DNA of 64,000 nt from Caldisericota bacterium (GTDB lineage Bacteria; Caldisericota; JANLFM01): contig JANLFM010000006.1 in the NCBI GenBank assembly GCA_024655865.1, forward strand, positions 16,183-80,182, read 5' to 3'. The notes beneath the pieces are model-generated. The model was not told the DNA's origin. It saw only the letters and a program-made list of their open reading frames with translations, and did no database searches. Below, in pieces: positions 4,172 through 64,000 of this stretch. Both the position numbers and the translations under genes were made by a program. Positions within the stretch are counted from its first letter, which is position 1. Every line of letters starts with the position of its first letter.

Positions 4172-6426
4172 TTTTCCTCCAATTTAGCACATGCAATTGC
4201 CCCCTGCCCTACGGAAATTGCTCCATCGTTTACGGGCAAGTTCCGAGGCAGCAGGACTTTAAAGCCTTCTTGCTCAAGCATCTCTAAAAGACGGGCAAGA
4301 AGCAAGAGATTCTGAAAGACTCCTCCCGAAAGGACGACCTGGGAAATGGCGTATCTTTCCCTTCCCCATTTACACCCCTCCAGTATTCCTCGGGCAAACG
4401 CCTCGTGAAATGAGAGGGCTAAATCCCGAGGGTTTTCCCCTCTCAGCTTGCGATAAGCGAGCTCCCTAACCATGGGGGCGGGATCGAGCAGAAAACGGTC
4501 TTCCTCCTTGTTGGGAAAATTCAGGGGAATAACGCTCCTTCCTTTTTCCGCTTCTCGCTCCAAAATAATGGCCGCCTGTCCCTCATAGGAGATCTCCCTG
4601 GAGAACCCCAAGATTGCGGAGATGGTGTCGAAGAGGCGACCAGCTGAGGAGGTCTGTGGGGAACCAAATCCCTTTCTCCACTGGGCCTCCAGAACTTTCA
4701 TTCTCTCTTCTCCAATTTCCGGGAAAATTTTTAAAGAAAGCACTGGAGAGCCTCCCTCGGCGTTCAAAAGGTGGCTCACAGCCATCCTCCATGGTTGCCT
4801 GATGGCTTCCTCTCCTCCCAGAAGAGGGAGATAATCAAGGTGACCGAACCTCTTGTAGGACCAGAGGTCGGCGATAAGAAACTCCATTCCCCAGATCGCT
4901 CCGTCATCCCCATATCCTGTCCCATCGCAGGAAACTCCGATCACGGGATGAAAAATGCGGTGCTCGAAGAGCACGGAGGCGATGTGCGCGTGGTGATGTT
5001 GCACGGGAATCTTCATCCCTACATTAAGGGAGAGGGCATACTGGGTCACGATGTACTGAGGATGCAAATCGTAAGCTACAACTTCTGGTTCTATCTGATA
5101 GAGCGCCTTTAAATGCTCAAGCGACGAAAGGAAGTGCTCGTAGCTTTCCCAGTTCTCCAGATCGCCTATGTGGTGGGAGAGAAAAAGGTAGTTTCTTTTG
5201 GTCAACGAGAAGGTGTTCTTCATCTCGGCCCCGGTGGCCAGAATGGAAGGGAAATTTCCCCAAAGCTTAAAGGGGAAGGGCGCGTACCCTCTGGCCCTTC
5301 TTACCATCTGAATTCCCCTGGAGTATGAGCCTAAAACGGAGTCGTCGAGTTTCTGAACGATTTCCCGGTCGTGCCACAGGAAAGCATCCGCAACCGCAGA
5401 AAGTTTACTCAATGCCTCCTCATTTGAAGCTACCAGGGGTTCGCCGCTCTCGTTGGCTGAGGTCATTACCAGGGCCTGAAACTCCTCCAAAAGCAGGTGA
5501 TGCAGCGGAGTGTAAGGGAGCATAATCCCGATTCGGTTATTGTCCGCGGAAAGGGAGGGTGCCAGGGGGGTACCCTCTCTCTTCGGAAGGATCACGATTG
5601 GCCTCCTCCAGCCAGTTAGCTCCCTTTGCGCTTCCTCAGAAACCCAGGCCAGGCTTTGAGCTACTTCCAGCGAGGGAACCATTATGGCCAATGCTTTGCT
5701 GGGCCTACCCTTTCTTTCCCTTAACCTGATCACGGCTTCCTCGTTTGTGGCATCGCAGGCTAAATGAAAACCGCCGAGCCCTTTGATCGCCAGTGTTTTT
5801 CCCTCCCTGAGCAATACTTTGGCGCGCTTTAGGGCTTCTTCCTCGAAAAGAACGCGCTCTCCTTCCTTCAAAGAGAGCTTTGGCCCGCACTTCGGGCAGG
5901 CCACGGGCTGAGCGTGATAGCGGCGATCCCTGATATCGTGATATTCCCGCTCACAGTCCGGGCACATAGGGAACTTCTTCATGGAGGTCCGGGCCCGATC
6001 GTAAGGCAAGGATTCGATAATCGTGAAGCGGGGACCGCAATTTGTACAGTTCAAAAAGGGGTAACGGTATCTCCGATCCGAGGGATCGCGCATTTCCCGC
6101 AAACAGTCCTCGCATGTAGCTACATCAGGGGGTATTAAGGTGATAGGCTCTTCCTCTGTCCGGGAGGAGCGAATTTGAAATTCCGCATAGCCCACGGGCT
6201 CCAGCTCCTCCACCTCCAGAGTCTCAAGGACAGCGAGCGGAGGGGGGTTATCTCTAAGTTCTCTGAGAAAAAATGGGGCCTTCTCCCCTTCCACTTCTAT
6301 CAAGACGCCTGAGGGTGAGTTCAACACCCACCCTTTAAGATTATATTTCAGAGCCAGGTTATGGACATAAGGTCGAAAGCCGACTCCCTGGACCACTCCC
6401 TCGGCCCTGATACGCAGTCTGACCAT
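4162..6426 (-). CDS. hypF: Carbamoyltransferase HypF
   Basis: N-terminal acylphosphatase domain (VQGVGFRPYV). Two CxxC zinc-finger pairs, then YrdC and Kae1-like domains, in a 754-aa protein. Confidence 0.9.
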   Translation of the reverse strand: MVRLRIRAEGVVQGVGFRPYVHNLALKYNLKGWVLNSPSGVLIEVEGEKAPFFLRELRDNPPPLAVLETLEVEELEPVGYAEFQIRSSRTEEEPITLIPPDVATCEDCLREMRDPSDRRYRYPFLNCTNCGPRFTIIESLPYDRARTSMKKFPMCPDCEREYHDIRDRRYHAQPVACPKCGPKLSLKEGERVLFEEEALKRAKVLLREGKTLAIKGLGGFHLACDATNEEAVIRLRERKGRPSKALAIMVPSLEVAQSLAWVSEEAQRELTGWRRPIVILPKREGTPLAPSLSADNNRIGIMLPYTPLHHLLLEEFQALVMTSANESGEPLVASNEEALSKLSAVADAFLWHDREIVQKLDDSVLGSYSRGIQMVRRARGYAPFPFKLWGNFPSILATGAEMKNTFSLTKRNYLFLSHHIGDLENWESYEHFLSSLEHLKALYQIEPEVVAYDLHPQYIVTQYALSLNVGMKIPVQHHHAHIASVLFEHRIFHPVIGVSCDGTGYGDDGAIWGMEFLIADLWSYKRFGHLDYLPLLGGEEAIRQPWRMAVSHLLNAEGGSPVLSLKIFPEIGEERMKVLEAQWRKGFGSPQTSSAGRLFDTISAILGFSREISYEGQAAIILEREAEKGRSVIPLNFPNKEEDRFLLDPAPMVRELAYRKLRGENPRDLALSFHEAFARGILEGCKWGRERYAISQVVLSGGVFQNLLLLARLLEMLEQEGFKVLLPRNLPVNDGAISVGQGAIACAKLEEKCA

Positions 6427-47887: not shown

Positions 47888-48611
47888 AAAAATAGGGACA
47901 GTCCCTATTTTTTTCTGGGCCTTCCCCTCAGCTTCGGAAGCGCCTCCTGGCCGAGCCTTTTTATAATTTCCTCCGCCCACCCTCTGCTTCCGAAAGGGAC
48001 CTGCCTGTTGGCACAGGCTCTCAATTTTTCCAGCTCTCCGGGGCTTACTGCTTCCATGACATAGGTGCCCCAGTCTCGGGGAAGAGGGACCGGGCTGGCA
48101 TCAAGAAGGGGGATCTTCACGTTTCCCCCTTCCCTTTCCCGGAAAGAAGACCACTTCCACTCGCCAGGAAGAGAGGCCAATCCCGCCCTCAAGGGATTGG
48201 CCTCCACATAGCGCATAACCATGAGAAAATGCTCGTCCTCCTGAACGAGAAAGCATCGGAAGCGGTCCTGCCAGATGTGGCCGCTCGTCCCATGCTCCTT
48301 GTGATAGCGGCGAACATGGCTGGTGCAAAGCCAGTGCATTCCCCGGCTCAGGTCTTTACCCTCTGGAGAAGAGAGGACCAGATGAAAGTGGTTGGGCATC
48401 AGGCAATAAGAAAAAATTGACCAGAAATACTTTTCCTTCGTTTCCTTAAGCAGCTGGAGGAAGGAGAGATAGTCCTTTTCCTTGTAGAAAACGGTCTGCC
48501 TGCCATTCCCCCGGTTGAGCACGTGGTAAATTGCTCCCCCGATGACATTTCGAGCTGTCCGTGGCATCCTCAGTTTCCTCCTTCAAAAATAGGGACAGTC
48601 CCTATTTTTTT
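47888..48611. mobile_element. REP-RAYT-REP unit: IS200-like REP-associated tyrosine transposase flanked by palindromic REP hairpins
   Basis: The palindrome AAAAATAGGGACAGTCCCTATTTTT occurs at 47888..47914 and 48585..48611 in the same orientation. Each is followed by TCTGGGCC. Confidence 0.7.
47905..48567 (-). CDS. REP-associated tyrosine transposase (RAYT, IS200/IS605 TnpA-like)
   Basis: HUH motif (MPNHFHLV). 'YHVLNRG' near the N-terminus. A downstream catalytic-Tyr region (RYVEANPLRAGL). The TAG stop lies inside REP-A. Confidence 0.8.
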   Translation of the reverse strand: MPRTARNVIGGAIYHVLNRGNGRQTVFYKEKDYLSFLQLLKETKEKYFWSIFSYCLMPNHFHLVLSSPEGKDLSRGMHWLCTSHVRRYHKEHGTSGHIWQDRFRCFLVQEDEHFLMVMRYVEANPLRAGLASLPGEWKWSSFREREGGNVKIPLLDASPVPLPRDWGTYVMEAVSPGELEKLRACANRQVPFGSRGWAEEIIKRLGQEALPKLRGRPRKK

Positions 48612-48882: not shown

Positions 48883-48910
48883 AAAAAAATGGGGACAGTC
48901 CCCAGTTTAT
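48883..48910. repeat. Degenerate REP-like palindrome (AAAAAAATGGGGACAGTCCCCA)
   Basis: Variant of the REP core at the 3' end of the nucleotidase gene. Confidence 0.45.
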
Positions 48911-52744: not shown

Positions 52745-53911
52745 TCAATAAAAAATAGGGACTGTCCCTATTTTTTTTCGGGCCCAGCGATCCGCTTCCA
52801 GAACCTCTTCCAGAGTCTCCCCCGAAAGGGGCACGTGGCAGGACAGCACTTCCTCCACTACTTGAACGATTCTGGTAAACGAAATCCTTCCCCCAAGGAA
52901 GGCCTCAACCGCTACCTCATCCGCGGCAGAGAGCACGGTGGGTGCGGTGCCTCCCATCTCGAGGGCCAGATATGCAAGCCTCAGAGCCGGGAAGCGCTCC
53001 AGGTCAGCCCTTTGGAACTCTAACTTCCCCACCTCCGCCAGATCCAGTGTACGGACGAGGGAGGGAAGCCTCTCCGGATAAAGGAGGGCATACTGAATGG
53101 GAAGCCTCATATCAGGGACCGAGAGCTGGGCCAGCATAGCCCCGTCCTTGAACCGAACCAAGGAATGAACCACGCTCTGGGGATGAATTAGGACCTCGAT
53201 CTTCTCCGGAGGCAGTCCAAACAAATAGTGGGCCTCGATCACCTCCAATCCTTTATTCATCAAAGTGGCAGAATCTACCGTGATCTTTTTCCCCATCTTC
53301 CAGACAGGGTGAGCCAGGGCCTCCTCCACCGTCACCCTTTCAAGCTCGGCCGGGTTCCGGCGCCAGAATGGTCCCCCGCTGGCGGTGAGGACGATCTTGT
53401 CCACAGCCTCCATCGACTCCCCTTGCAGGCACTGGAAAATCGCCGAGTGCTCGGAGTCCACAGGGATCAAGCGCCCTCCCCCTTCTTTGATTGCCCTCTC
53501 TACCAGCTTCCCCCCGGCAACCAGCGCCTCCTTCGTAGCCAGAGCTACGGTCTTCCCTCTTCTCAAAGCCTCCAGAGTGGGTGCCAGGCCCGCGATCCCC
53601 ACAACCGCCACGAGCACAAGATCCACATCCTCCCTCGTTACGAGCTCCACGAGCCCCTCCTCCCCCAGATAGAGGCCGGTTCCGGGGGGAAGGAATGAGC
53701 CGAGAAGGTTCGCTCTCGAAGGATCGGTGGAGGCCGGGTGGGTAAGTGCCACAGCTTTTGGATGATGCCGCAACACGATCTTTCCCAGCTCTTCCACGGA
53801 GCGGGAAGCAGAAACCCCTACGAGCTCCAGGCGCTCGGGGAAGCGCTCCACGACCTCAAGAGCCTGTCTGCCAATGGAACCTGTGGCGCCTAAAATTGAA
53901 ATGCGCTTCAT
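52745..53911 (-). CDS. dxr: 1-deoxy-D-xylulose 5-phosphate reductoisomerase
   Basis: N-terminal 'ISILGATGSIGRQALEV' NADPH motif and overall Dxr architecture. The last 12 codons (..KKIGTVPIFY*) are encoded by the REP element. Confidence 0.9.
   Translation of the reverse strand: MKRISILGATGSIGRQALEVVERFPERLELVGVSASRSVEELGKIVLRHHPKAVALTHPASTDPSRANLLGSFLPPGTGLYLGEEGLVELVTREDVDLVLVAVVGIAGLAPTLEALRRGKTVALATKEALVAGGKLVERAIKEGGGRLIPVDSEHSAIFQCLQGESMEAVDKIVLTASGGPFWRRNPAELERVTVEEALAHPVWKMGKKITVDSATLMNKGLEVIEAHYLFGLPPEKIEVLIHPQSVVHSLVRFKDGAMLAQLSVPDMRLPIQYALLYPERLPSLVRTLDLAEVGKLEFQRADLERFPALRLAYLALEMGGTAPTVLSAADEVAVEAFLGGRISFTRIVQVVEEVLSCHVPLSGETLEEVLEADRWARKKIGTVPIFY
52750..52815. repeat. REP hairpin embedded in the dxr 3' end (partner of 48585..48650)
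   Basis: AAAAAATAGGGACTGTCCCTATTTTTTTT followed by CGGGCCCAGCGATCCGCTTCCAGAACCTCTTCCAGAG. The dxr reading frame passes through the hairpin. Confidence 0.8.
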
Positions 53912-54390: not shown

Positions 54391-57300
54391 TTGAAGAGAT
54401 CAAAAGTTATTTCGCTTGTAGCCATTGTCTTTCTCCTTGTCTTTTTCACCACCAGTATTGGCATGGCTACCCCCTTGGTTACCCCTGGCCGCACCATTCC
54501 CGAATCCTGGAAGGTGTCTCCGCAGAAAATCGTGGAAAATCACCTTGCTCAAGCAAGCAAGGTGGATTCCTCTCTATCCAAATCCAGTCCGGTTTTCCAG
54601 AAGTCGCTTCCCGAGGAGGGTATACAGGCGCCTGTGCCTGATGATGGCGTGGCCAAAGGAAATTTCCGGGTGGAAGAGGACGGAAAAATCACGGCCATTA
54701 TTGGTCTGAAGGAAGCGCCCGTGGCCGCAGTTCAGGACAAGAACCTGATCAGCAGGAACCTTCTCAAAGTAAAAAGTGAGCAGATCATGGCCGAGGACGT
54801 CCTGGCCTCCATCGGGGATGTCGAGGTTAAGGAGAAGCTTCAGTACGCTTACAACGGCCTGGTCGTTCGCTTCCCCAAAGAGAAGCTTTCGGAAATCCAA
54901 AAGCGCTTCGGCGCGGAGAACATTCACCCCTCCAAGACCTATTACCTGGACATGGCCTACAGCACCGTGCTCACAGGAGCCACGACTGTCTGGTCTAACC
55001 TCGGTTACGACGGTACGGGAGTGGTGGTAGGCGTTGTGGACACCGGTGTGGACTACAATCACCCTGATTTAGGTGGAGGATTCGGCAACAAGGTAATCGC
55101 TATGATTGACACCGGAGACGACGACAACGACGCTATGGATTCAAACGGTCACGGCACGCACGTTGCTGGCACAATGGCGGCAAAGGCCGCAGCACCGGGT
55201 GGAGTCACAGGCATGGCTCCGGAAGCGAAAATCATTGCAGCCAAGATCGTAAAAGGCGGGGAGGGCTCTGCTTCGAACGCTGACATCGCTGCTGCCTTCG
55301 ACTGGATGCTCCAGAAGAAGTTGGAGGGTGTAAATCTGGTCTCCATCAATATGTCCTTCGGCTTCCCCGGTGGCTGGAACAACCCCACTGATCCCGAGCA
55401 GGTGGCGATCCAGAACTGCGTGGATAACGGGATTTTTGTCTCCCTCTCCGCAGGAAACGAGTACTGGTCGGTTTATCCCTATAACCAGGTTTACTACTAC
55501 GGGGAAAATTACCCTAGGACCACCTGGTACCCCGCCGACATCAGCACTGTCGGCTCTCCTGCTACTACACCTGGTGCAGCTTCAGTCGCCGCTTCCTGGA
55601 ACACGAATTCTATGTATCCCAGCTTCCTCGAAGTAACGGGGTCAAGGCGCATTCCTTATGTCGTAGGAAGCCCCTCCCCTGACCCTGTAAATGTCTTTGG
55701 CACATCCAGCCAATTGGAGTATGTTTACTGCGGCCTCGGCGGAACACCAGCGGATTTCCCCTCTTCAGTAGCAGGAAAGATCGCCCTGATTGAGAGAGGA
55801 GTGTACACATTCCTGACAAAGGTTCAAAATGCTCAGGCTGCTGGCGCTATCGGTGTGATTGTTTATAACAGCGCTGCCGGTGGGGAAGCTTTCGTCACCA
55901 TGGCGCTGGATGCGAGCGTCACCATTCCTGCGGTCTTTATCCGCAGAAGTGACGGCTTGTATCTTCAGGGTCTTACCAGCCCACCGGCAAAGGTGCAGTT
56001 TGACGGTCAGGTGACCGCGGTAGCCAACCCCACTGCCGACAAGATGGTGGACTTCTCCTCCTGGGGTACTGACCCCAATTTGAACTTTAAACCCGAGATC
56101 GCGGCTCCCGGTGGCGGAATCTGGTCCACAGTGCCTCTGGCCATGGGCGGGTACGCCAACTACTCCGGAACATCCATGTCCTCCCCTCATGTGGGCGGCG
56201 CTGCTGCTTTGATCATGCAGGCTCATCCCGACTGGACGCCCGCTCAGGTTAAGGCTGCCTTAATGAACACGGCTACGCTCCTCACAGATCCTACAACCGG
56301 CCTTCCCTACAGCCCCAGGCTCCAGGGCGCCGGCCGTATCAACGTCTATGACGCTCTCCTCACTCCGGTTTTCGTCGCCGACAACACCACGAATTACCCC
56401 GCTGAGCCCCTGGGAGACACAGATTCTGCTACCTCGAAGAGCTTCACTTTAAAGCTCACCAATACCGCAACTTATGACATCACTTACAATCTCAGCGCCA
56501 CCATCCAGAGGTATAGTACCACCCGCGTTCCTTACGCTCTTACTGGGGGAAGCGTTACCTTCCCGGGAGGCACTTCTGTGACAGTTCCCGCTGGGGGCAC
56601 AGCCCTGGTGGATGTAATAGTTAGCGTGGCGGGAAACATTACCTACGAGAACATCTTTGTGGACGGGTTCGTGAACTTCACCCCTCAAGGGGCGACGGTT
56701 CCCGAGCTCCACGTTCCCTACACCCTCTTCTGGGGTGACTGGCAGGATACCAGATACACGGAAGACTGGGCGCATAACCCGGTAATCGATCCTCCTCCCG
56801 ATGATCCCACAGGCTGGTGGTGGTGGGGCTACACCTGGCTCTACACTCAGATGGGCACCTCCTACTACTACCTCGGTTACACATTCAGCGGCGACCTCGA
56901 CCGCAACGCCATCGCTATCTCTCCCAATGGGGACGGGATCTGGGATAACCTCTATCCCCTAATTTCCTTAATGAGGGGCACTCCCGAGACCTATGTTCAC
57001 AAGAACTTCAACCGCTATCCCTACTGGGATTCCTGGGACAACTGGTGGCTCTGGGCTCCTGCGCCAGGGGCGATCCCTGATGGCAACTACTTCCTGAGAT
57101 TTAAGGCTGAGATTCCGGGAACCCTCACCCAGCATTCCGGAATTTACCAGACGGTTGACCTGCCCTTCATCGTGGATACGGCGGTACCCCAGGTGAACGT
57201 CTCTACCAGCATTTCAAAGGTCCCCTCCGGTTCTTACGACTTCACCATTAACTGGACTGCCTCCGACGACAGGAGCGGCCTCTGGGGGTTCGACCTCTAC

Positions 57301-57945
57301 TTAGATGGGGAATACTACGACTCTGTAGGGCCGGATGTCACGAGCTACACCTTCACCGGCCTTCCCGACGCTCCCCATTCCTTTATGGTTGTGGCCTGGG
57401 ATAACGCCCAGAACTACGCCTTCTCTGCTTACCTCTACAACGCCTTCACCTTCAATATGAGCGCGGGCTGGAACTTCTTCTCCTTCCCGGTTCAGACCAA
57501 CCCCGATCCCAGTAAAGTACTTCCTTCAACTCCTGCGCCATTCACTCTTAAATGGTTCAACGACGCTACCCAGAAGTGGGTAACAAAGAACATCACCTTC
57601 ACCCTGGGAGACGCCTACTGGCTGATGCTCAAAAAGGCCACTTCATTCACCTTCTCCGGCGTACTGAACGGCCAGCCCTCCTTCTCTATCGCTCTCTATA
57701 CGGGCAGAAACGATATCGGTGTACCCTATCCGGCGAACTTCAGCTGGACGGACGTGAAAGTGCAGAAGGGCAACACCGTGCTCACCCTCAAGGACGCTTT
57801 AAAGGCCAAGTGGATCAGAAATGTCTTCTACTGGGATCGCGGCGTGTACCGCAGTGCCCTGAATAAGGATTTGATCCCCGGCAACGGTTACATTATTTAC
57901 GCCAACACCCCGCTGACTCTGATCTTCCCGAATCCCCTCTATTGA
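54391..57945 (+). CDS. Secreted S8 subtilisin-like serine protease with PA domain and long C-terminal extension (1184 aa)
   Basis: TTG start after a GGAGG RBS. Signal peptide. Catalytic triad motifs: VGVVDTGVDYNHPDL (Asp), HGTHVAGT (His) and GTSMSSPHVGG (Ser). Confidence 0.9.
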   Translation: MKRSKVISLVAIVFLLVFFTTSIGMATPLVTPGRTIPESWKVSPQKIVENHLAQASKVDSSLSKSSPVFQKSLPEEGIQAPVPDDGVAKGNFRVEEDGKITAIIGLKEAPVAAVQDKNLISRNLLKVKSEQIMAEDVLASIGDVEVKEKLQYAYNGLVVRFPKEKLSEIQKRFGAENIHPSKTYYLDMAYSTVLTGATTVWSNLGYDGTGVVVGVVDTGVDYNHPDLGGGFGNKVIAMIDTGDDDNDAMDSNGHGTHVAGTMAAKAAAPGGVTGMAPEAKIIAAKIVKGGEGSASNADIAAAFDWMLQKKLEGVNLVSINMSFGFPGGWNNPTDPEQVAIQNCVDNGIFVSLSAGNEYWSVYPYNQVYYYGENYPRTTWYPADISTVGSPATTPGAASVAASWNTNSMYPSFLEVTGSRRIPYVVGSPSPDPVNVFGTSSQLEYVYCGLGGTPADFPSSVAGKIALIERGVYTFLTKVQNAQAAGAIGVIVYNSAAGGEAFVTMALDASVTIPAVFIRRSDGLYLQGLTSPPAKVQFDGQVTAVANPTADKMVDFSSWGTDPNLNFKPEIAAPGGGIWSTVPLAMGGYANYSGTSMSSPHVGGAAALIMQAHPDWTPAQVKAALMNTATLLTDPTTGLPYSPRLQGAGRINVYDALLTPVFVADNTTNYPAEPLGDTDSATSKSFTLKLTNTATYDITYNLSATIQRYSTTRVPYALTGGSVTFPGGTSVTVPAGGTALVDVIVSVAGNITYENIFVDGFVNFTPQGATVPELHVPYTLFWGDWQDTRYTEDWAHNPVIDPPPDDPTGWWWWGYTWLYTQMGTSYYYLGYTFSGDLDRNAIAISPNGDGIWDNLYPLISLMRGTPETYVHKNFNRYPYWDSWDNWWLWAPAPGAIPDGNYFLRFKAEIPGTLTQHSGIYQTVDLPFIVDTAVPQVNVSTSISKVPSGSYDFTINWTASDDRSGLWGFDLYLDGEYYDSVGPDVTSYTFTGLPDAPHSFMVVAWDNAQNYAFSAYLYNAFTFNMSAGWNFFSFPVQTNPDPSKVLPSTPAPFTLKWFNDATQKWVTKNITFTLGDAYWLMLKKATSFTFSGVLNGQPSFSIALYTGRNDIGVPYPANFSWTDVKVQKGNTVLTLKDALKAKWIRNVFYWDRGVYRSALNKDLIPGNGYIIYANTPLTLIFPNPLY

Positions 57946-57967
57946 GCGAAAAAGGTATTTGAATCTT

Positions 57968-58008
57968 CGAGCGGCTGGCTTGGGCCCAAGCCAGCCGCTC
58001 GTCTTTTG
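57968..58008 (+). terminator. Rho-independent terminator of the subtilase gene
   Basis: Perfect 17-bp inverted repeat CGAGCGGCTGGCTTGGG/CCCAAGCCAGCCGCTCG followed by TCTTTTGG. Confidence 0.7.
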
Positions 58009-58166
58009 GAATCAATTTTATGAGCATTCGCCCTTTTTCACAGCTTTAATCTCCTCCCTGACGCACCGGGAGAAGGAGGTTTACGAAGAGAGGTCACTTC
58101 AGGATAATTTGAAAGTAAAAACTGAGGAAAAAGGGTTGTTCTCGCTCTGAAAGAGAAAATTTTTGT

Positions 58167-58175
58167 GGTATAATG
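58167..58175 (+). promoter_or_regulatory. Extended -10 element TGGTATAAT for the C1 peptidase gene
   Basis: 'TTTTGTGGTATAATG' lies 28 bp upstream of the ATG. It has the same core as the kinase promoter at 28132. Confidence 0.45.
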
Positions 58176-58203
58176 TTGAAAAATCCAAAGGACACGAGGC
58201 GAG

Positions 58204-60822
58204 ATGAAAAAAGGATTGAGCGGAGCGATTGCGGCGGTTCTTTTAACTTTTCTTTTTATTTTCCCTGCCATGCCACCGGCGTTTTCCCAGCAGCCCCCGC
58301 CGCAGATTGCCCCGGTAAGCAGCGCTTTTTTAAACCGAATTTCGGAAATCGGCCAGAAAGCTGATTATAATTTAACAGAAGAGCAAGCCCTGGGATATTT
58401 CCCCTCCCCTTTGGACCGCTCCCATTTGATGGGAATGGGCACTCGTTTTAGCGAAGCCAACTCCTTCCCCTCCTCCTACGACCTCCGCTCTTCAGGAAAG
58501 GTTTCTCCTGTGAGAGACCAGAACCCTTACGGCACCTGCTGGGCTTTTGCGGCCTACGGTTCCCTGGAGTCCGCCCTCTTGCCATCTGAGTCCTGGGATT
58601 TCTCTGAGGACAACCTGGTGAATGGAAGCGGCTTTGATTTCGATCCCTACAACGGCGGAGGAAATCAGGATATGACCACAGCCTATCTTACCCGCTGGAG
58701 CGGGCCGGTGCGGGAGGATCAGGATCCTTACCCAACCCCGGGAGTTCTGACGCTTCCTCCCCAGAAGCACGTGCAGGAAGTTCTTTACCTGCCGGGAAGA
58801 TCCGGGGCACTCGACAATTCTACCATTAAAAGTGCGGTTATGACCTACGGCGGGGTTTACACATCAATTTACTGGAGCAACTCTTACTACAATTCCACTC
58901 GCCGCAGTTATTTCTACAATGGAACCCGGGCACCCAATCACGCCGTGGTGATCGTGGGCTGGAACGACGATTTCCCGGCCTCCTATTTTTCAAGCAGGCC
59001 TCCGGGAAACGGGGCTTTCATCGTCAGGAACAGCTGGGGAAGCTCCTGGGGCGAGGACGGTTATTTTTACGTCTCTTACTATGATTCCAAAATCGGGGGA
59101 GATCTTGCCGTCTTCAACAACGCGGAGCCTGTTTCCAATTACTCCAGAATCTACCAGTACGACCCCCTGGGTTGGACTGCTTCAGCGGGTTACGGACAGG
59201 AAACGGCCTGGTTTGCCAACGCCTTCACCGCTTCCGCATCCGAGACCCTTGTGGCCGTGAGCTTCTACACCCCCTCCTTAAACAGCGCTTACCAGATCTA
59301 TACGGGAAGCTCCCTCCAGAGCCTAAATCTTTGCGGGTCGGGTTCCCTAACTTTACCTGGCTATCACACAGTAACACTGGATTCACCTTTTCCCCTGAGC
59401 GCAGGAACAAAATTCCTGGTGGCGATTAAGCTCACTACGCCCGGTTACTTATACCCCATTCCTCTGGAATATCCCTTTTCGAATTACAGTAGTGGGGCTT
59501 CTGCCTCATCCGGACAGAGCTACATGAGCCCTGAGGGATCAAGCTGGCAGGATGTCACCTCCCTTTATGCCAAAACCAATGTCTGCCTGAAGGCTTTCAC
59601 CGCTCCTTCTTCAGGATCTCCTCTAGTTTCCATTACCCCTACCCAGTTTGTCTTTCAGGCCCTTGAAGGTGGCGGCAACCCGCCCCCTCAAACCCTATCC
59701 ATTCAGAACACGGGCGGGGGAACCTTGAGGTGGCAGGTCTCCGAGAGCGCCTCCTGGCTCAGCCTCTCTCCTTTAAACGGTTCCTCGACGGGTGAGGTTG
59801 ATCAGGTGACCGTGAGCGCGAATACGAGCGGTCTGGGCGCCGGCACATATAACGCCACGATCACGGTGAAAAATTCAGACACCCTGCAAGTGCTTGAAAC
59901 CGTTCCGGTAACCTTACAGGTCTCCCCCCAGGGTGGCGCAAGCGGCCTGAGGGCTATTCCCCCCGCATCCTTGAGCGTCCAGAAGGGGACGGGCGCGGGG
60001 CTTCTTTCCAGCCTCTTTTTCGATGACTCCAGCTACTTCCAGGTGGCCTCCGCTTTCATTTCTCCGTACTACTACATTGAGTGGACGGCTGATTTTCAGG
60101 TCCCCGATTACGGGAACGCCAAGTTTTTGGGGGTGAGGTTCAAGGGGTTTAATTCCCGCTCTGTGAGCACCTACCTCAAGCTCTACAACTGGTCCACGAA
60201 GAGGTGGGACAGCCTGAAGTCGGCCTCCATTTCCACAAGCGAGAAGGAGATCCTGGGAACCACGCTCGATTGCGGAAAGTACATCTCCGCAAGCGGCCAG
60301 GTGAGGGTGCAGATCTACGGGAGGACCTCTTACAGCTCCTTCACGAACAGTGCGGACCTGTTAGAGGTGCTTGCGGGATATTCTCTGAGGACCGTCCCGC
60401 CTTCCTCCTTGAGCGTCCAGAAGGGGACGGGCGCGGGGCTTCTTTCCAGCCTCTTTTTCGATGACTCCAGCTACTTCCAGGTGGCCTCCGCTTTCATTTC
60501 TCCGTACTACTACATTGAGTGGACGGCTGATTTTCAGGTCCCCGATTACGGGAACGCCAAGTTTTTGGGGGTGAGGTTCAAGGGGTTTAATTCCCGCTCT
60601 GTGAGCACCTACCTCAAGCTCTACAACTGGTCCACGAAGAGGTGGGACAGCCTGAAGTCGGCCTCCATTTCCACAAGCGAGAAGGAGATCCTGGGAACCA
60701 CGCTCGATTGCGGAAAGTACATCTCCGCAAGCGGCCAGGTGAGGGTGCAGATCTACGGGAGGACCTCTTACAGCTCCTTCACGAACAGTGCGGACCTGTT
60801 AGAGGTAATAGCGGGGTATTAG
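58204..60822 (+). CDS. Secreted papain-like (C1A) cysteine peptidase with C-terminal duplicated beta-domain (872 aa)
   Basis: Signal peptide. Catalytic Cys (NPYGTCWAFAA), His (NHAVVIVGWND) and Asn/Trp (VRNSWGSSWGEDGYF) motifs. Confidence 0.85.
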   Translation: MKKGLSGAIAAVLLTFLFIFPAMPPAFSQQPPPQIAPVSSAFLNRISEIGQKADYNLTEEQALGYFPSPLDRSHLMGMGTRFSEANSFPSSYDLRSSGKVSPVRDQNPYGTCWAFAAYGSLESALLPSESWDFSEDNLVNGSGFDFDPYNGGGNQDMTTAYLTRWSGPVREDQDPYPTPGVLTLPPQKHVQEVLYLPGRSGALDNSTIKSAVMTYGGVYTSIYWSNSYYNSTRRSYFYNGTRAPNHAVVIVGWNDDFPASYFSSRPPGNGAFIVRNSWGSSWGEDGYFYVSYYDSKIGGDLAVFNNAEPVSNYSRIYQYDPLGWTASAGYGQETAWFANAFTASASETLVAVSFYTPSLNSAYQIYTGSSLQSLNLCGSGSLTLPGYHTVTLDSPFPLSAGTKFLVAIKLTTPGYLYPIPLEYPFSNYSSGASASSGQSYMSPEGSSWQDVTSLYAKTNVCLKAFTAPSSGSPLVSITPTQFVFQALEGGGNPPPQTLSIQNTGGGTLRWQVSESASWLSLSPLNGSSTGEVDQVTVSANTSGLGAGTYNATITVKNSDTLQVLETVPVTLQVSPQGGASGLRAIPPASLSVQKGTGAGLLSSLFFDDSSYFQVASAFISPYYYIEWTADFQVPDYGNAKFLGVRFKGFNSRSVSTYLKLYNWSTKRWDSLKSASISTSEKEILGTTLDCGKYISASGQVRVQIYGRTSYSSFTNSADLLEVLAGYSLRTVPPSSLSVQKGTGAGLLSSLFFDDSSYFQVASAFISPYYYIEWTADFQVPDYGNAKFLGVRFKGFNSRSVSTYLKLYNWSTKRWDSLKSASISTSEKEILGTTLDCGKYISASGQVRVQIYGRTSYSSFTNSADLLEVIAGY
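59971..60822 (+). repeat. Perfect tandem duplication, period 438 bp (146 aa), inside the C1 peptidase gene
   Basis: The roughly 400-bp stretch at about 59971..60371 is repeated base-for-base at about 60409..60809. The identical minus-frame ORFs at 60204..60464 and 60642..60839 confirm it. Confidence 0.9.
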
Positions 60823-60828
60823 GAAAAC

Positions 60829-61512
60829 TCAAGGGGTGAAGATTAACCGGTAAAGAAGAACCGCGGCCTGCGCTCTGGTTGCAGGAAGGTCAGGGGAAAA
60901 AGTATATCCCACAATCTCTTTGTGGTAGGCTCCGATGGGCTTCGAGACTTCCTCGGTAAGTCCAGGATCTGGCACGCGCAGAATGTTGAAGGAAAGAGCC
61001 GTCTGAATGTAGGGGAAAAACCAGTCTTCCTCACGGCAGTCCAAAAAAGCACCTTTTTTATAAACGCTCGCAGGCAGTTTCCTGGCCACCACGATCACTT
61101 TTACGATCTCTGCTTTGCTGATCGTTTTCTCCGGTTCGAATCTTCCGTCCGGGTACCCGGAAATCCATCCTAATTTAACGCAGGCTTCCACATAGCCAAA
61201 GGCCCAGTGCCGGCGGGGGACATCGGGGAAAGTCGGCGCGGCGGGGAACTGGGGTTCAGCTTTGTGCAGAGAAGAAAGCAGGGTGAGTTTAGCGAATTCC
61301 GCCCTGGTGACGGGATTCTCCGGGCGGAAAGCCCCGTCCGGATAGCCGGAAATGATTCCTTCCTGAGTTAGAAACTGGATCTCCTTATAAGCCCAGTGAT
61401 CCGGGGACAAGTCTTGAAAGGAAGGGGTCTTTGAGTAAACGCCCGGACCGGAGAGGCTCAGGAGGAACCAAAAAACCAGAAGAAGAACCGTTGCTCGCAA
61501 GATTACCTTCAT
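60829..61512 (-). CDS. SLH-domain surface protein (three SLH repeats)
   Basis: Signal peptide. SLH motifs (..SGYPDGAFRPENPVTRAEFAKL.., ..SGYPDGRFEPEKTISKAEIV..). Confidence 0.75.
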   Translation of the reverse strand: MKVILRATVLLLVFWFLLSLSGPGVYSKTPSFQDLSPDHWAYKEIQFLTQEGIISGYPDGAFRPENPVTRAEFAKLTLLSSLHKAEPQFPAAPTFPDVPRRHWAFGYVEACVKLGWISGYPDGRFEPEKTISKAEIVKVIVVARKLPASVYKKGAFLDCREEDWFFPYIQTALSFNILRVPDPGLTEEVSKPIGAYHKEIVGYTFSPDLPATRAQAAVLLYRLIFTP

Positions 61513-61787
61513 TTTTTCCTCCCTCTTTTCATTGCCTTCAATTTTAACAGAACTTCTAAGAAGGCGCTGCGAAAAGCCCTGGATTTTTTAATAATCCAAA
61601 GAAGGACGGGAGAAACTTCCCAAAATAACCTTTCCTCCTTCTTGAGCCAGGCCGGGAATAAACAAGAACCAGGAACGCTCCGCTTTTAAAGCTTAAAAAC
61701 TGAGAAATCGAGAGCAAAATGACTCTCATCAAGAGGATGTTTGAAAAACCAGTAAGAGCTTCAGGCAGACTAAATGAGCGCCCGAAA

Positions 61788-61828
61788 AAGGACAAAAGAA
61801 AAAGAGGGGGCCTTGCGGCCCCCTCTTT
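61788..61828 (-). terminator. Rho-independent terminator of the large secreted protein gene
   Basis: AAAGAGGGGGCC-ttgc-GGCCCCCTCTTT hairpin. On the minus strand it is followed by UUUUUCUUUUGUC. Confidence 0.65.
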
Positions 61829-61844
61829 CGTTCAAAAAACGGCC

Positions 61845-64000
61845 TTAGTCGACGAAAATCTCGAAGTCTTTGCCAGAGTATGAGCCACCAAAGGGATCCA
61901 CGGGCTCTGTGATGTAGCCATCATCGGGAGTGATGATGATGGTGTTGGGAGCATACCTGCCGTCGTAATCGAGGCGGATGGTGACATCGTGGAAGTTGTA
62001 GAACTGGATTCCGGTGAACGCGTAGGAGCCGGTGGAATCGGTGTAGGTTACTTCCTCATGGGGGTTGCCGCAGGCGTCAGTCCATTCAAGGTAAACAGGC
62101 ATGTCAGAAGGGGTTTCCGTCACTTCGCCTGTAGCTGTCACCGTGCCGGAGAAGTCCCAAGCACCAAGGGTGAAGTTGAGGTCGAATTCCCAGGTACCGG
62201 TCAGGACCTCCGTTCCGGTATCAGCGTCCACGGCGTTGTAGAAGACGATGTAGTGTCCGGGAACCAGTCCGCAGGGGGTGAAGACCATGGTGTCGTTGGG
62301 GTAGATCCCGGTCTGGGTGAAGGTAAACTCACCGCAGTAGGGGTAATTTCCAGGATCGGCAGTGAACCATTGGCCATCGTCTACATTGTAGAACAACATC
62401 CAGCTCTTGGCGGTGTTCAGGGGCTCGTTGAACTGCATCCAGACGTGGAAGCCTTCCTGTGGTACATATTCTTCAGTAGTAGGTTCGTATCCGGAATCGA
62501 TTATCCTGAGCTCGGTCCCCAGCATGGGTCGAATGACGATGAACTTCACCACGGGGATGTACTGGCCATTGACCAGCATCCAGTCGCACATGTAGGGGTT
62601 AGCGGGTTCTTCGACGGGTTGGAAGAAGACCTGGACGAACTGCTCGCGCTGGAGGTCGGCCATCTTCTTGATCAGGATGTTGCCGTCGGGAGTGGGAACG
62701 TTGGGAGCGGGCAGGGTAGCGTCGTAGATCACGGTTCCGGGCTGACGAATAGAAGGGTTAGAGGAGCTAGCAGGCCATGGGACTGTGATGATATCCTTGG
62801 CGGCCAGCCAGGTGGTCTCATATTGTTCGTAGGGGATGGGGTTCGGCTTCCAAGCGGTTGAGGGAGTGAAGGTCCAGTAGAGCTGCTCGCGGCTCGTGTT
62901 CTCTAAGGAGAAGATAGTTCCGTCGAAGGTGGGCCCGATCTCGTCAATGATGCCCTCGGTGTTGTAGGCCTGGAGCGCACCAGGATTGGTGGCCAGCTCC
63001 TCGATCTTGAGAATATCTCCTAAGCTGGTGGTAACTTTGGAGAGCTTAACAACGTCGCGCACCAGGTTCTGGAGCTTCTGCCAGACAGCGTAAAGGGTGG
63101 TGTAGTCAGTAATGGCTGCGCTTCCGTCTTCGATTGCTTTGGTGCCACGGTTATGATCGTTGTACCAGCTGAATTTCCAGAAGATGCTGGTAACTCCAGA
63201 GGAATCAGCGAGCTCTGTCAGCGGGTAGTTCACTACAGTTCCATCACCCTTCATGACGTCAATGGAGAGGTGGTAACCGGTGGAATCCTGGTTCATGTTC
63301 ACGCGGGTGACCATGCCGTACTCAAGGTAGGCTGTAGTGGTCACCGGGTTAGCATTAGTCAAGAGGCGAACTTTGCCATCGGCATTCAGTACAATGAGAA
63401 CGTTTGTTCCCAGCCAATCCTCTCTCTCATCCCAGAGGTTGTTGAAAACATATTCGTAGTCAAGCCAGTACCAGTAGCCTCCAACCCAAGTTGATGTGCC
63501 GAATGTGGCGCCGGATTCCACGGCTCCCACTTGTCCCACAGGAGCGGTGGGCTCCTCTTTGGTTCCGGTTGTAGAAGCGGCGATGGCCGGGAATTCACCG
63601 CGGCCGGGGAAAAGCACATCGTAGACCTTGCCGGAAACCTTGATCTGGGTGACCCAGTCATTGCCCCACTGATCCTTGGTGCGATAGATGTCCTCCAGGA
63701 CCCCAGTCTGTGTAACCTCGTTCCCCTCGAAGCGGACCACAGAGAACCTGTTCTCCTCATCAAGGTTCTTGACAGGAGCCATGTACACGGTTCCCACTGG
63801 ATAAATTGTCGAATAGAACCAGTCTAAAGCTGAGTAGGCGCCACCTACTGCCGCATACCAGTTCCAGTTGGTGTAATCGCCACCGCCTAAGACGAACTTA
63901 GCATCATCCTCAACTAAAGCCGTGTAGGTATCGGCGGAAGTGGGATAAGGAGTGGGAAGTCTCTTGTTGAAGGTATTGTCGTCGGTATAGGAGAAGGACA
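61845..64000 (-). CDS. Large secreted protein of unknown function, partial (N-terminus beyond window end)
   Basis: The frame stays open upstream of the GTG at 63797 through to position 64000, checked manually over about 40 codons. The product is Trp/Tyr-rich with a C-terminal prealbumin/CarboxypepD_reg-like region. Confidence 0.6.
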   Translation of the reverse strand, partial: SFSYTDDNTFNKRLPTPYPTSADTYTALVEDDAKFVLGGGDYTNWNWYAAVGGAYSALDWFYSTIYPVGTVYMAPVKNLDEENRFSVVRFEGNEVTQTGVLEDIYRTKDQWGNDWVTQIKVSGKVYDVLFPGRGEFPAIAASTTGTKEEPTAPVGQVGAVESGATFGTSTWVGGYWYWLDYEYVFNNLWDEREDWLGTNVLIVLNADGKVRLLTNANPVTTTAYLEYGMVTRVNMNQDSTGYHLSIDVMKGDGTVVNYPLTELADSSGVTSIFWKFSWYNDHNRGTKAIEDGSAAITDYTTLYAVWQKLQNLVRDVVKLSKVTTSLGDILKIEELATNPGALQAYNTEGIIDEIGPTFDGTIFSLENTSREQLYWTFTPSTAWKPNPIPYEQYETTWLAAKDIITVPWPASSSNPSIRQPGTVIYDATLPAPNVPTPDGNILIKKMADLQREQFVQVFFQPVEEPANPYMCDWMLVNGQYIPVVKFIVIRPMLGTELRIIDSGYEPTTEEYVPQEGFHVWMQFNEPLNTAKSWMLFYNVDDGQWFTADPGNYPYCGEFTFTQTGIYPNDTMVFTPCGLVPGHYIVFYNAVDADTGTEVLTGTWEFDLNFTLGAWDFSGTVTATGEVTETPSDMPVYLEWTDACGNPHEEVTYTDSTGSYAFTGIQFYNFHDVTIRLDYDGRYAPNTIIITPDDGYITEPVDPFGGSYSGKDFEIFVD

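Follow-up and report, generated by a model that had tools for sequence, protein, structure and literature searches.

Repeats of the alpha C/Rib type are intragenic repeats, identical at the DNA level, that occur in bacterial surface proteins. Periscope Proteins are a further group of surface proteins with DNA-identical domain repeats, for which unequal crossing-over has been proposed (PMC8201768). A different kind of surface-associated protein is Cwp84 of Clostridioides difficile, a cysteine protease associated with the surface layer (S-layer), in which a lectin-like domain was first described (PMC4089489; PDB 4CI7/4D59). Here we describe a gene that resembles both systems in part. It lies at 58204..60822 on the forward strand of a 64,000-nucleotide stretch of contig JANLFM010000006.1 (assembly GCA_024655865.1, from a Caldisericota bacterium), which we call the window, and it encodes an 872-amino-acid secreted Cwp84-like cysteine peptidase of the C1 family, as assigned from the list of open reading frames (ORFs), an exact look-up and a match to PDB 4ci7_A. 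An identical protein is recorded at NCBI as MCR4433124.1; it comes from a metagenome-assembled genome (MAG) of Caldisericota in which the gene lies on an 89-kb contig. The peptidase ends in two tandem copies of one domain. A preliminary description, made from the letters of the DNA, had read them as a base-perfect 438-bp duplication that might be very recent, an expansion/contraction-prone locus or an assembly artefact. We conclude instead that the pair is most probably an old duplication whose copies have been kept identical by recombination.

The repeat and its shared junction

Tandem Repeats Finder (TRF) reported a single array at 59968-60820, with a period of 438 bp, 1.9 copies and 99% matches. 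The period equals 146 codons and is in frame. Unit 1 comprises residues G581-Y726 (59944..60381, forward strand, 438 nt) and unit 2 comprises residues S727-Y872 (60382..60819, forward strand), after which the stop codon TAG follows at 60820-60822. A search for exact runs at an offset of 438 showed that the core of unit 1 (59968..60368, forward strand) equals the core of unit 2 (60406..60806, forward strand) over 401 bp with zero mismatches. An exact repeat of this length cannot be due to chance; the other self-matches found by BLAST in the window are at most 72 nt long, except for one weak match of 171 nt at 72% identity. TRF, the offset scan and the translation thus bore out the two in-frame 146-residue units, their coordinates and the 'IAGY*' ending that had been described, but the duplication proved to be base-perfect over 401 bp rather than 438 bp, with 15 differences among the other 37 positions.

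These differences lie at the two edges of the units, 11 of 24 positions on the left and 4 of 13 on the right. On the left, unit 1 reads GLRAIPPA (GGC CTG AGG GCT ATT CCC CCC GCA) and unit 2 reads SLRTVPPS (TCT CTG AGG ACC GTC CCG CCT TCC); on the right, VLAGY (G CTT GCG GGA TAT) stands against VIAGY (A ATA GCG GGG TAT). The edge differences include synonymous changes and conservative replacements (A/T, I/V, A/S and L/I). Where the units meet (60369..60405, forward strand), the right edge of unit 1, GCTTGCGGGATAT, is joined to the left edge of unit 2, CTGAGGACCGTCCCGCCTTCC, through a TAT/TCT fusion that replaces the stop codon. The junction encodes LAGY-SLRTVPPS; copy 1 ends in ...LLEVLAGY-S and copy 2 in ...LLEVIAGY*.

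The absence of any difference over 401 bp is what would be expected if the domain had been duplicated very recently in the window lineage and had had no time to diverge, and two distant relatives, considered below, have a single copy. However, a fresh 438-bp duplication gives at least 438 identical bases, whereas here the identical run is shorter than the period and the edges have diverged, with synonymous changes among the differences. This contrast of 0/401 with 15/37 argues against a young duplicate.

Close relatives provided stronger evidence on this point. Two genomes, GCA_049720615.1 (L085) and GCA_049718385.1 (L086), were found through the neighbouring genes and a 90% cluster, and both are approximately 93% identical to the window (over 4.5 kb for L085). 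L085 has the same period of 438 bp and an exact run of 421 bp, which includes the right edge. The contig of L086 opens within the last part of copy 1, some 58 nt short of the junction, and runs on through the junction and copy 2. A start at this point is what an assembler halting at an exact repeat would produce, and it lends indirect support to identical cores in this genome too. The window, L085 and L086 all have one and the same junction, GGGATATT-CT-CTGAGG (alignment A4), and the junction string GGGATATTCTCTGAGG is common to them as well. An identical junction in three genomes points to one ancestral duplication common to all of them, and it rules out independent duplications in each genome.

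The cores themselves have changed since that duplication. Of the 401 core sites, 20 distinguish the window from L085; these are spread over positions 2-395 (alignment A4) and fall in 16 synonymous and 3 non-synonymous codons. All 20 differences are present in both copies of their own genome, so that the count of differences within a genome is 0/401 for the window and 0/401 for L085. Orthologous synonymous divergence (dS) is 0.215 in the core, a value comparable to the 0.115-0.18 in the rest of the gene and the neighbouring SLH gene, whereas paralogous dS is 0. These values indicate that the window and L085 lineages have truly diverged. The ratio of non-synonymous to synonymous change (omega) in the core is 0.05, and the unit is under strong purifying selection. 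A divergence of dS ~0.2 is older than any young duplication could be. A recent origin could be rescued only if L085 and L086 were contaminated from the window population, but both diverge from the window by 5-7% along the whole contig. With a run shorter than the period, diverged edges and a junction shared by genomes with diverged cores, the very recent duplication that had been suggested is not borne out, and we give it hardly any credence.

The right edges of the units were compared among genomes. The internal right edge of the window, GCTTGCGGGA, equals the terminal edge of the distant relative L003, and its terminal edge, AATAGCGGGG, resembles the terminal edge of the distant relative L002. 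In L085, a chimera, AATAGCGGGA, occupies both right-edge positions. The edge haplotypes are mosaics, which fits repeated recombination with variable end points.

A further assembly, JGI Ga0417229_001051 (L083), matches the window over 57006-64000 except for three single-nucleotide polymorphisms (SNPs) near 57940, and it holds the identical repeat structure and junction. The same community or population has probably been assembled a second time in L083, given that the combined length of its two contigs is close to that of the NCBI contig.

These assemblies bear on whether the pair was made by the assembler, either by expansion of a single copy or by collapse of two unlike copies to one consensus used twice. 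Every source here is a metagenome assembly, the 401-bp exact repeat is longer than short reads, the L086 contig begins as expected of an assembler stopping at the repeat, and L083 and the window probably share reads. Nevertheless, the reads must hold a fragment that links the end of the domain to its start, and the junction is in frame, free of stops and homologous to the unit edges yet diverged from them. The structure also occurs in four assemblies of three distinct genomes, recurring in L083, L085 and L086, and a de Bruijn graph would not collapse copies as unlike as the orthologues (one SNP per ~20 bp). What the assemblies could hide is a copy number above two or, at most, a handful of paralogous SNPs. 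We therefore consider an artefact, as the preliminary description had offered, to be very improbable.

Three other origins were considered and rejected. A microhomology-mediated duplication, for which the motif GAGG, present 5' of the unit and again immediately beyond the stop codon, might serve, would retain TAG at the junction. End-to-end joining of overlapping contigs from two strains does not account for a junction that recurs in diverged genomes. A paralogue elsewhere as donor was looked for, and no further copy of the domain was found within the window, L083, L002 or L003.

Single-copy relatives and probable recombination between the copies

Three metagenome contigs, L001-L003, are more distant relatives, 72-87% identical to the window. 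L002 and L003 contain a single copy of the domain, which lies in both cases inside a decaying C1 peptidase pseudogene. The two (L002, 1-2330; L003, 4338-5290) have in common a 1-nt deletion that falls in the W codon of IEWTADF. The frame of L002 is broken again by a frameshift near 1005 and by a TGA in NW*ST, and L003 has lost most of the gene, with ~530 bp of recognisable remnants left between the S8 gene and the single domain copy. The single copy of L002 has a left edge of the copy 1 type and a right edge of the copy 2 type. These single copies may be the product of a collapse or the ancestral state. Within the core, L002:1916-2316 and L003:4870-5270 are 4% apart in the first 150 nt and 12% apart in the remaining 251, whereas the same two parts are 20-24% and 10% apart from the window. 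Such mosaic alleles point to recombination between lineages inside the domain.

Had the copies evolved independently since a duplication before the split of the lineages, their divergence from each other would be no smaller than that of the orthologues. In neither lineage is this so, and such identity is the hallmark of concerted evolution. In the most probable history, one in-frame tandem duplication of the C-terminal domain would have replaced the stop by a fusion of the last sense codon, TAT, to a Ser-Leu-Arg linker codon, at a time when the window lineage had not yet separated from that of GCA_049720615.1 and GCA_049718385.1. Homologous recombination, through gene conversion or cycles of unequal crossing-over, would then have overwritten one copy with the other repeatedly and in each lineage. 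The expected outcome would be two identical cores per genome (with 401 bp for the window and 421 bp for its sister lineage) that have drifted by ~5% between genomes. The first and last few codons of the unit, at the limit of homology, would seldom have fallen within the exchanged tract and would have diverged into mosaics. The different tract ends (401 and 421 bp) and the mosaic edges suggest that the homogenisation events were independent. We put the probability at about 0.85 that the pair is an old duplication kept identical in this way and that it forms a pair of domains resembling carbohydrate-binding modules (CBMs) which gives surface binding. The process is ordinary and well documented; new are the protein and the phylum in which it is seen.

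Several points weigh against this conclusion. Assemblies, rather than reads, are the basis both for the exact copy number and for the finding that low-frequency paralogous variants are absent, and L083 was probably assembled from the same sample as the window. L085 is the only complete two-copy genome available for comparison, as L086 shows just the junction and copy 2. Gene conversion is not separable from cycles of expansion and contraction. If the single copy of L002 and L003 is ancestral, the duplication could be placed later, although still before the split of the window and L085. With regard to binding, the window unit scores below the threshold of the Pfam family GH114_assoc, that family is itself without a known ligand, and the best structural matches of the unit reach TM scores of only 0.55-0.69.

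A related possibility is that the duplication is ancient but owes its identity to recurrent cycling of copy number (2-1-2 or 2-3-2), selected for variable length as in Periscope-type proteins. Unequal crossing-over acts efficiently on an exact tandem repeat of 401-421 bp. A single copy is found in L002 and L003, and the combination of a left edge like that of copy 1 with a right edge like that of copy 2 in L002 is as expected of a collapse within the core. In addition, copies of this domain family within one protein are usually far more alike (27-100% identity in two-copy proteins, median 51%) than copies in different proteins (~30%). However, the copy number is exactly two in each of the three close genomes, and neither a synthetic one-copy nor a synthetic three-copy product was present in a collection of 15 billion proteins. 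The relatives with one copy are pseudogenes and thus uninformative on selection, and the repeats form the C-terminal end of the protein rather than a stalk between an anchor and a distal head. We consider cycling selected for length to be quite improbable. The suggestion that the locus is prone to expansion and contraction is therefore right in part: the repeats recombine with each other and distant relatives have one copy, but no variation in repeat number was found among the close relatives (two copies in the window, L083 and L085, and the junction in L086).

The peptidase, its terminal domain and the gene neighbourhood

The N terminus of the 872-residue protein contains a hydrophobic stretch, ...FPAMPPAFS/QQ, that looks like a signal peptide when the sequence is judged by eye. 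The papain-like catalytic domain (Peptidase_C1, residues 89-292, 58468..59079, forward strand; Pfam PF00112, E=5.3e-26) contains the motifs GTCWAF, NHAVVIVGW and NSWGSSWG, in which the catalytic Cys, His and Asn can be read in translation. Directly C-terminal to it, as in Cwp84, is a lectin-like domain of the Cwp84 type (residues 316-466, 59149..59601, forward strand; Pfam PF18560, E=2.2e-50, covering the full 1-156 of 156), followed by a BACON_2 Ig-like domain (residues 475-563, 59626..59892, forward strand; Pfam PF19190, E=7.1e-11). The best relative of solved structure is Cwp84 itself (4ci7_A, E=1.7e-29, residues 65-467). A Pfam scan detected no CWB2, SLH or sortase-type anchor domain in the protein, and the BACON_2 domain and the two orphan units sit where Cwp84 has CWB2. 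A scan of the genome collection with the whole protein found 78 loci, the best of them in Coprothermobacterota MAGs at ~50% identity. These matched the peptidase, lectin-like and BACON part only, and the C-terminal unit was absent from all 78.

The unit itself had no match in Pfam at E<=0.1, and a word-indexed homologue search with it returned only one fragment of 83 residues. An exhaustive HMMER search of 1.84 billion representatives, by contrast, found 201 proteins at E<=1e-3, with ~30% identity to the unit; the family profile recovers unit 1 with an independent E-value (iE) of 7e-46. Among the 145 proteins in which the domain is nearly full-length, 103 have it at the extreme C terminus, and at least two copies occur in 23 of the 150 matched proteins. 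The host proteins include S8 peptidases, phosphatases, metalloproteases and beta-propeller proteins. Among 31 aligned remote homologues, 12 reach Pfam PF14741 (GH114_assoc; best E=3.4e-07), and on this sequence evidence the window unit is a divergent relative of GH114_assoc rather than a scored member. A literature search for PF14741/GH114_assoc found nothing.

AlphaFold (AF2), given the family alignment, modelled one unit as a beta-sandwich with a pLDDT of 97.3. Foldseek searches of the PDB with this model matched a baseplate protein of phage phi812 (9eui_D, E=2e-7, TM 0.69) and CBM61 (2xom_A, E=1e-6, TM 0.55), as well as CBM16 and CBM4 (E ~1e-4) and MAM domains. A PDB sequence-profile search with the family alignment gave short matches to Kelch, a fucose lectin and Top7, all of them spurious, and nothing else. 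The tandem was modelled with a pLDDT of 92.8 and a pTM of 0.84 from a shallow alignment of 12 rows, and in this model the last strand of unit 1 runs almost directly into the first strand of unit 2. The model suggests that the two units form a fixed pair rather than beads on a string.

The unit probably attaches to a glycan or to the cell envelope. A rigid pair of such units at the C terminus of a Cwp84-like protease would most likely provide bivalent binding to a glycan or cell-envelope polymer, and such binding would hold the protease at the cell surface, beside the S-layer-type SLH proteins encoded by neighbouring genes. A role in envelope retention or targeting is suggested by the combination of a Cwp84-like enzyme, an SLH gene cluster, the lack of SLH and CWB2 anchors in the protein, a rigid CBM-like pair and purifying selection on it.

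The same domain family has been duplicated elsewhere. In an unrelated high-GC organism (P0056/L082; ENA ERZ25039492 contig_17911, a 568-kb contig, positions 5113-6023), a reprolysin-like metalloprotease carries an independent 459-bp tandem duplication with identical cores and 5 mismatches in the last 12 nt. There, a 1-nt homopolymer deletion, which may be a long-read error, puts copy 2 out of frame. This second occurrence of the pattern, together with the high identity of copies within proteins, hints at a family-wide tendency toward matched pairs. The identity of the copies might then be selected rather than neutral, with the domain family acting as a matched pair that binds, for example, a periodic cell-envelope polymer. 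Genes of the family would in that case be recurrently duplicated and homogenised, or switching between one, two and three copies would tune the retention of secreted enzymes at the surface. We regard selection for identity as unlikely.

The peptidase gene lies in a cluster of genes for surface proteins, within chromosomal DNA of an anaerobe (hydrogenase, Nuo-like genes, Dxr and 5'-nucleotidase). Upstream is the gene for a secreted S8 subtilase of 1184 residues (54391..57945, forward strand) with S8, PA and Fn3-like domains in Pfam, which is the second protease of the cluster. The JGI assembly breaks inside this gene at 56963-57006, where L003 carries a 21-residue insertion, and the three SNPs of L083 cluster at its 3' end (window 57933-57955) and shift the stop by one codon. 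The 3' region of the subtilase gene that includes both sites may be a strain-variable spot. A perfect 34-nt hairpin followed by a T-run (57968..58001, forward strand) was found by a terminator scan and as an inverted match in the self-BLAST. Its stem of 15 pairs, 11 of them GC, makes it the likely terminator of the subtilase gene, and a terminator here would isolate the peptidase gene as a transcription unit of its own. A promoter-like site (58147..58174, forward strand) lies 30 nt 5' of the peptidase ATG; it consists of CTGAAA, a 16-nt spacer and TATAAT with a TG extension, and it is a match to the consensus (10/12 in a promoter scan).

Downstream, a convergent gene for a 227-residue SLH-domain protein (60829..61512, reverse strand; Pfam SLH, E=1.1e-36) lies only 6 nt from the peptidase stop codon and supplies the cell-surface context. 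Beyond it lies the 3' part of a gene for a 1251-residue SLH-domain protein (61845..64000, reverse strand), with a frame that is open to the end of the window and is complete in L083 (5913..9668, with the SLH match). The ORF listed there as 650 residues (61845-64000) is the C-terminal part of this protein. Outside its SLH region the protein is without a Pfam match, and it is a candidate S-layer protein. Elsewhere in the window, a palindromic element of 26-35 nt, AAAAATAGGGACAGTCCCTATTTTT, occurs in four copies (47888-47913, 48585-48610, 48883-48908 and 52750-52775), two of which flank an IS200/Y1-transposase-like gene (47905-48567). The set could be a REP/RAYT-like arrangement or shared terminator hairpins.

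Comparison with described systems

As in other cases of concerted evolution, the paralogues within a genome are closer to each other than the orthologues are between genomes, and the repeat is long enough for homologous recombination. The case does not overturn current understanding. It shows that a fresh duplicate and an old one homogenised by recombination can be told apart from assemblies if a sister genome is examined for the junction and for the differences that separate the genomes, and it cautions those who annotate MAGs that a base-perfect repeat may be genuine.

The gene resembles those of Periscope-type proteins in having long in-frame repeats that are DNA-identical, that each encode a whole globular domain and that belong to a secreted or surface protein. 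It differs from them in having two copies only, with no variation in repeat number seen among close relatives, and in that the repeats end an enzyme rather than serve as a stalk that links a cell-wall anchor to a distal domain. The fold is also different: in place of the SHIRT, Rib or Ig-like domains of those proteins, the predicted fold here is CBM-like, and the host is an uncultivated Caldisericota bacterium.

The predicted jelly roll resembles the beta-sandwich CBMs (CBM61 2XOM, CBM16 and CBM4) and also the phage baseplate receptor-binding protein. Compared with PF14741 proteins, in which GH114_assoc is N-terminal to a GH114 catalytic domain, the unit is C-terminal and no GH114 domain is present. 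This widespread C-terminal CBM-like, GH114_assoc-related domain is flagged as a candidate module for surface retention or glycan binding.

Similar to Cwp84, the peptidase has a cathepsin-L-like C1 domain followed by PF18560, is secreted and is encoded within a cluster of cell-surface genes, here of the SLH type. The case documents, for Caldisericota, a phylum with almost no experimental data, a Cwp84-like protease that has an unusual module at its C terminus and is encoded in an S-layer-type cluster. For the cleavage of the S-layer precursor by Cwp84, the candidate counterparts here would be the products of the adjacent SLH genes, including that of 1251 residues. Whereas Cwp84 is anchored by three CWB2 repeats, this peptidase has none and carries instead a BACON_2 domain and two GH114_assoc-like domains.

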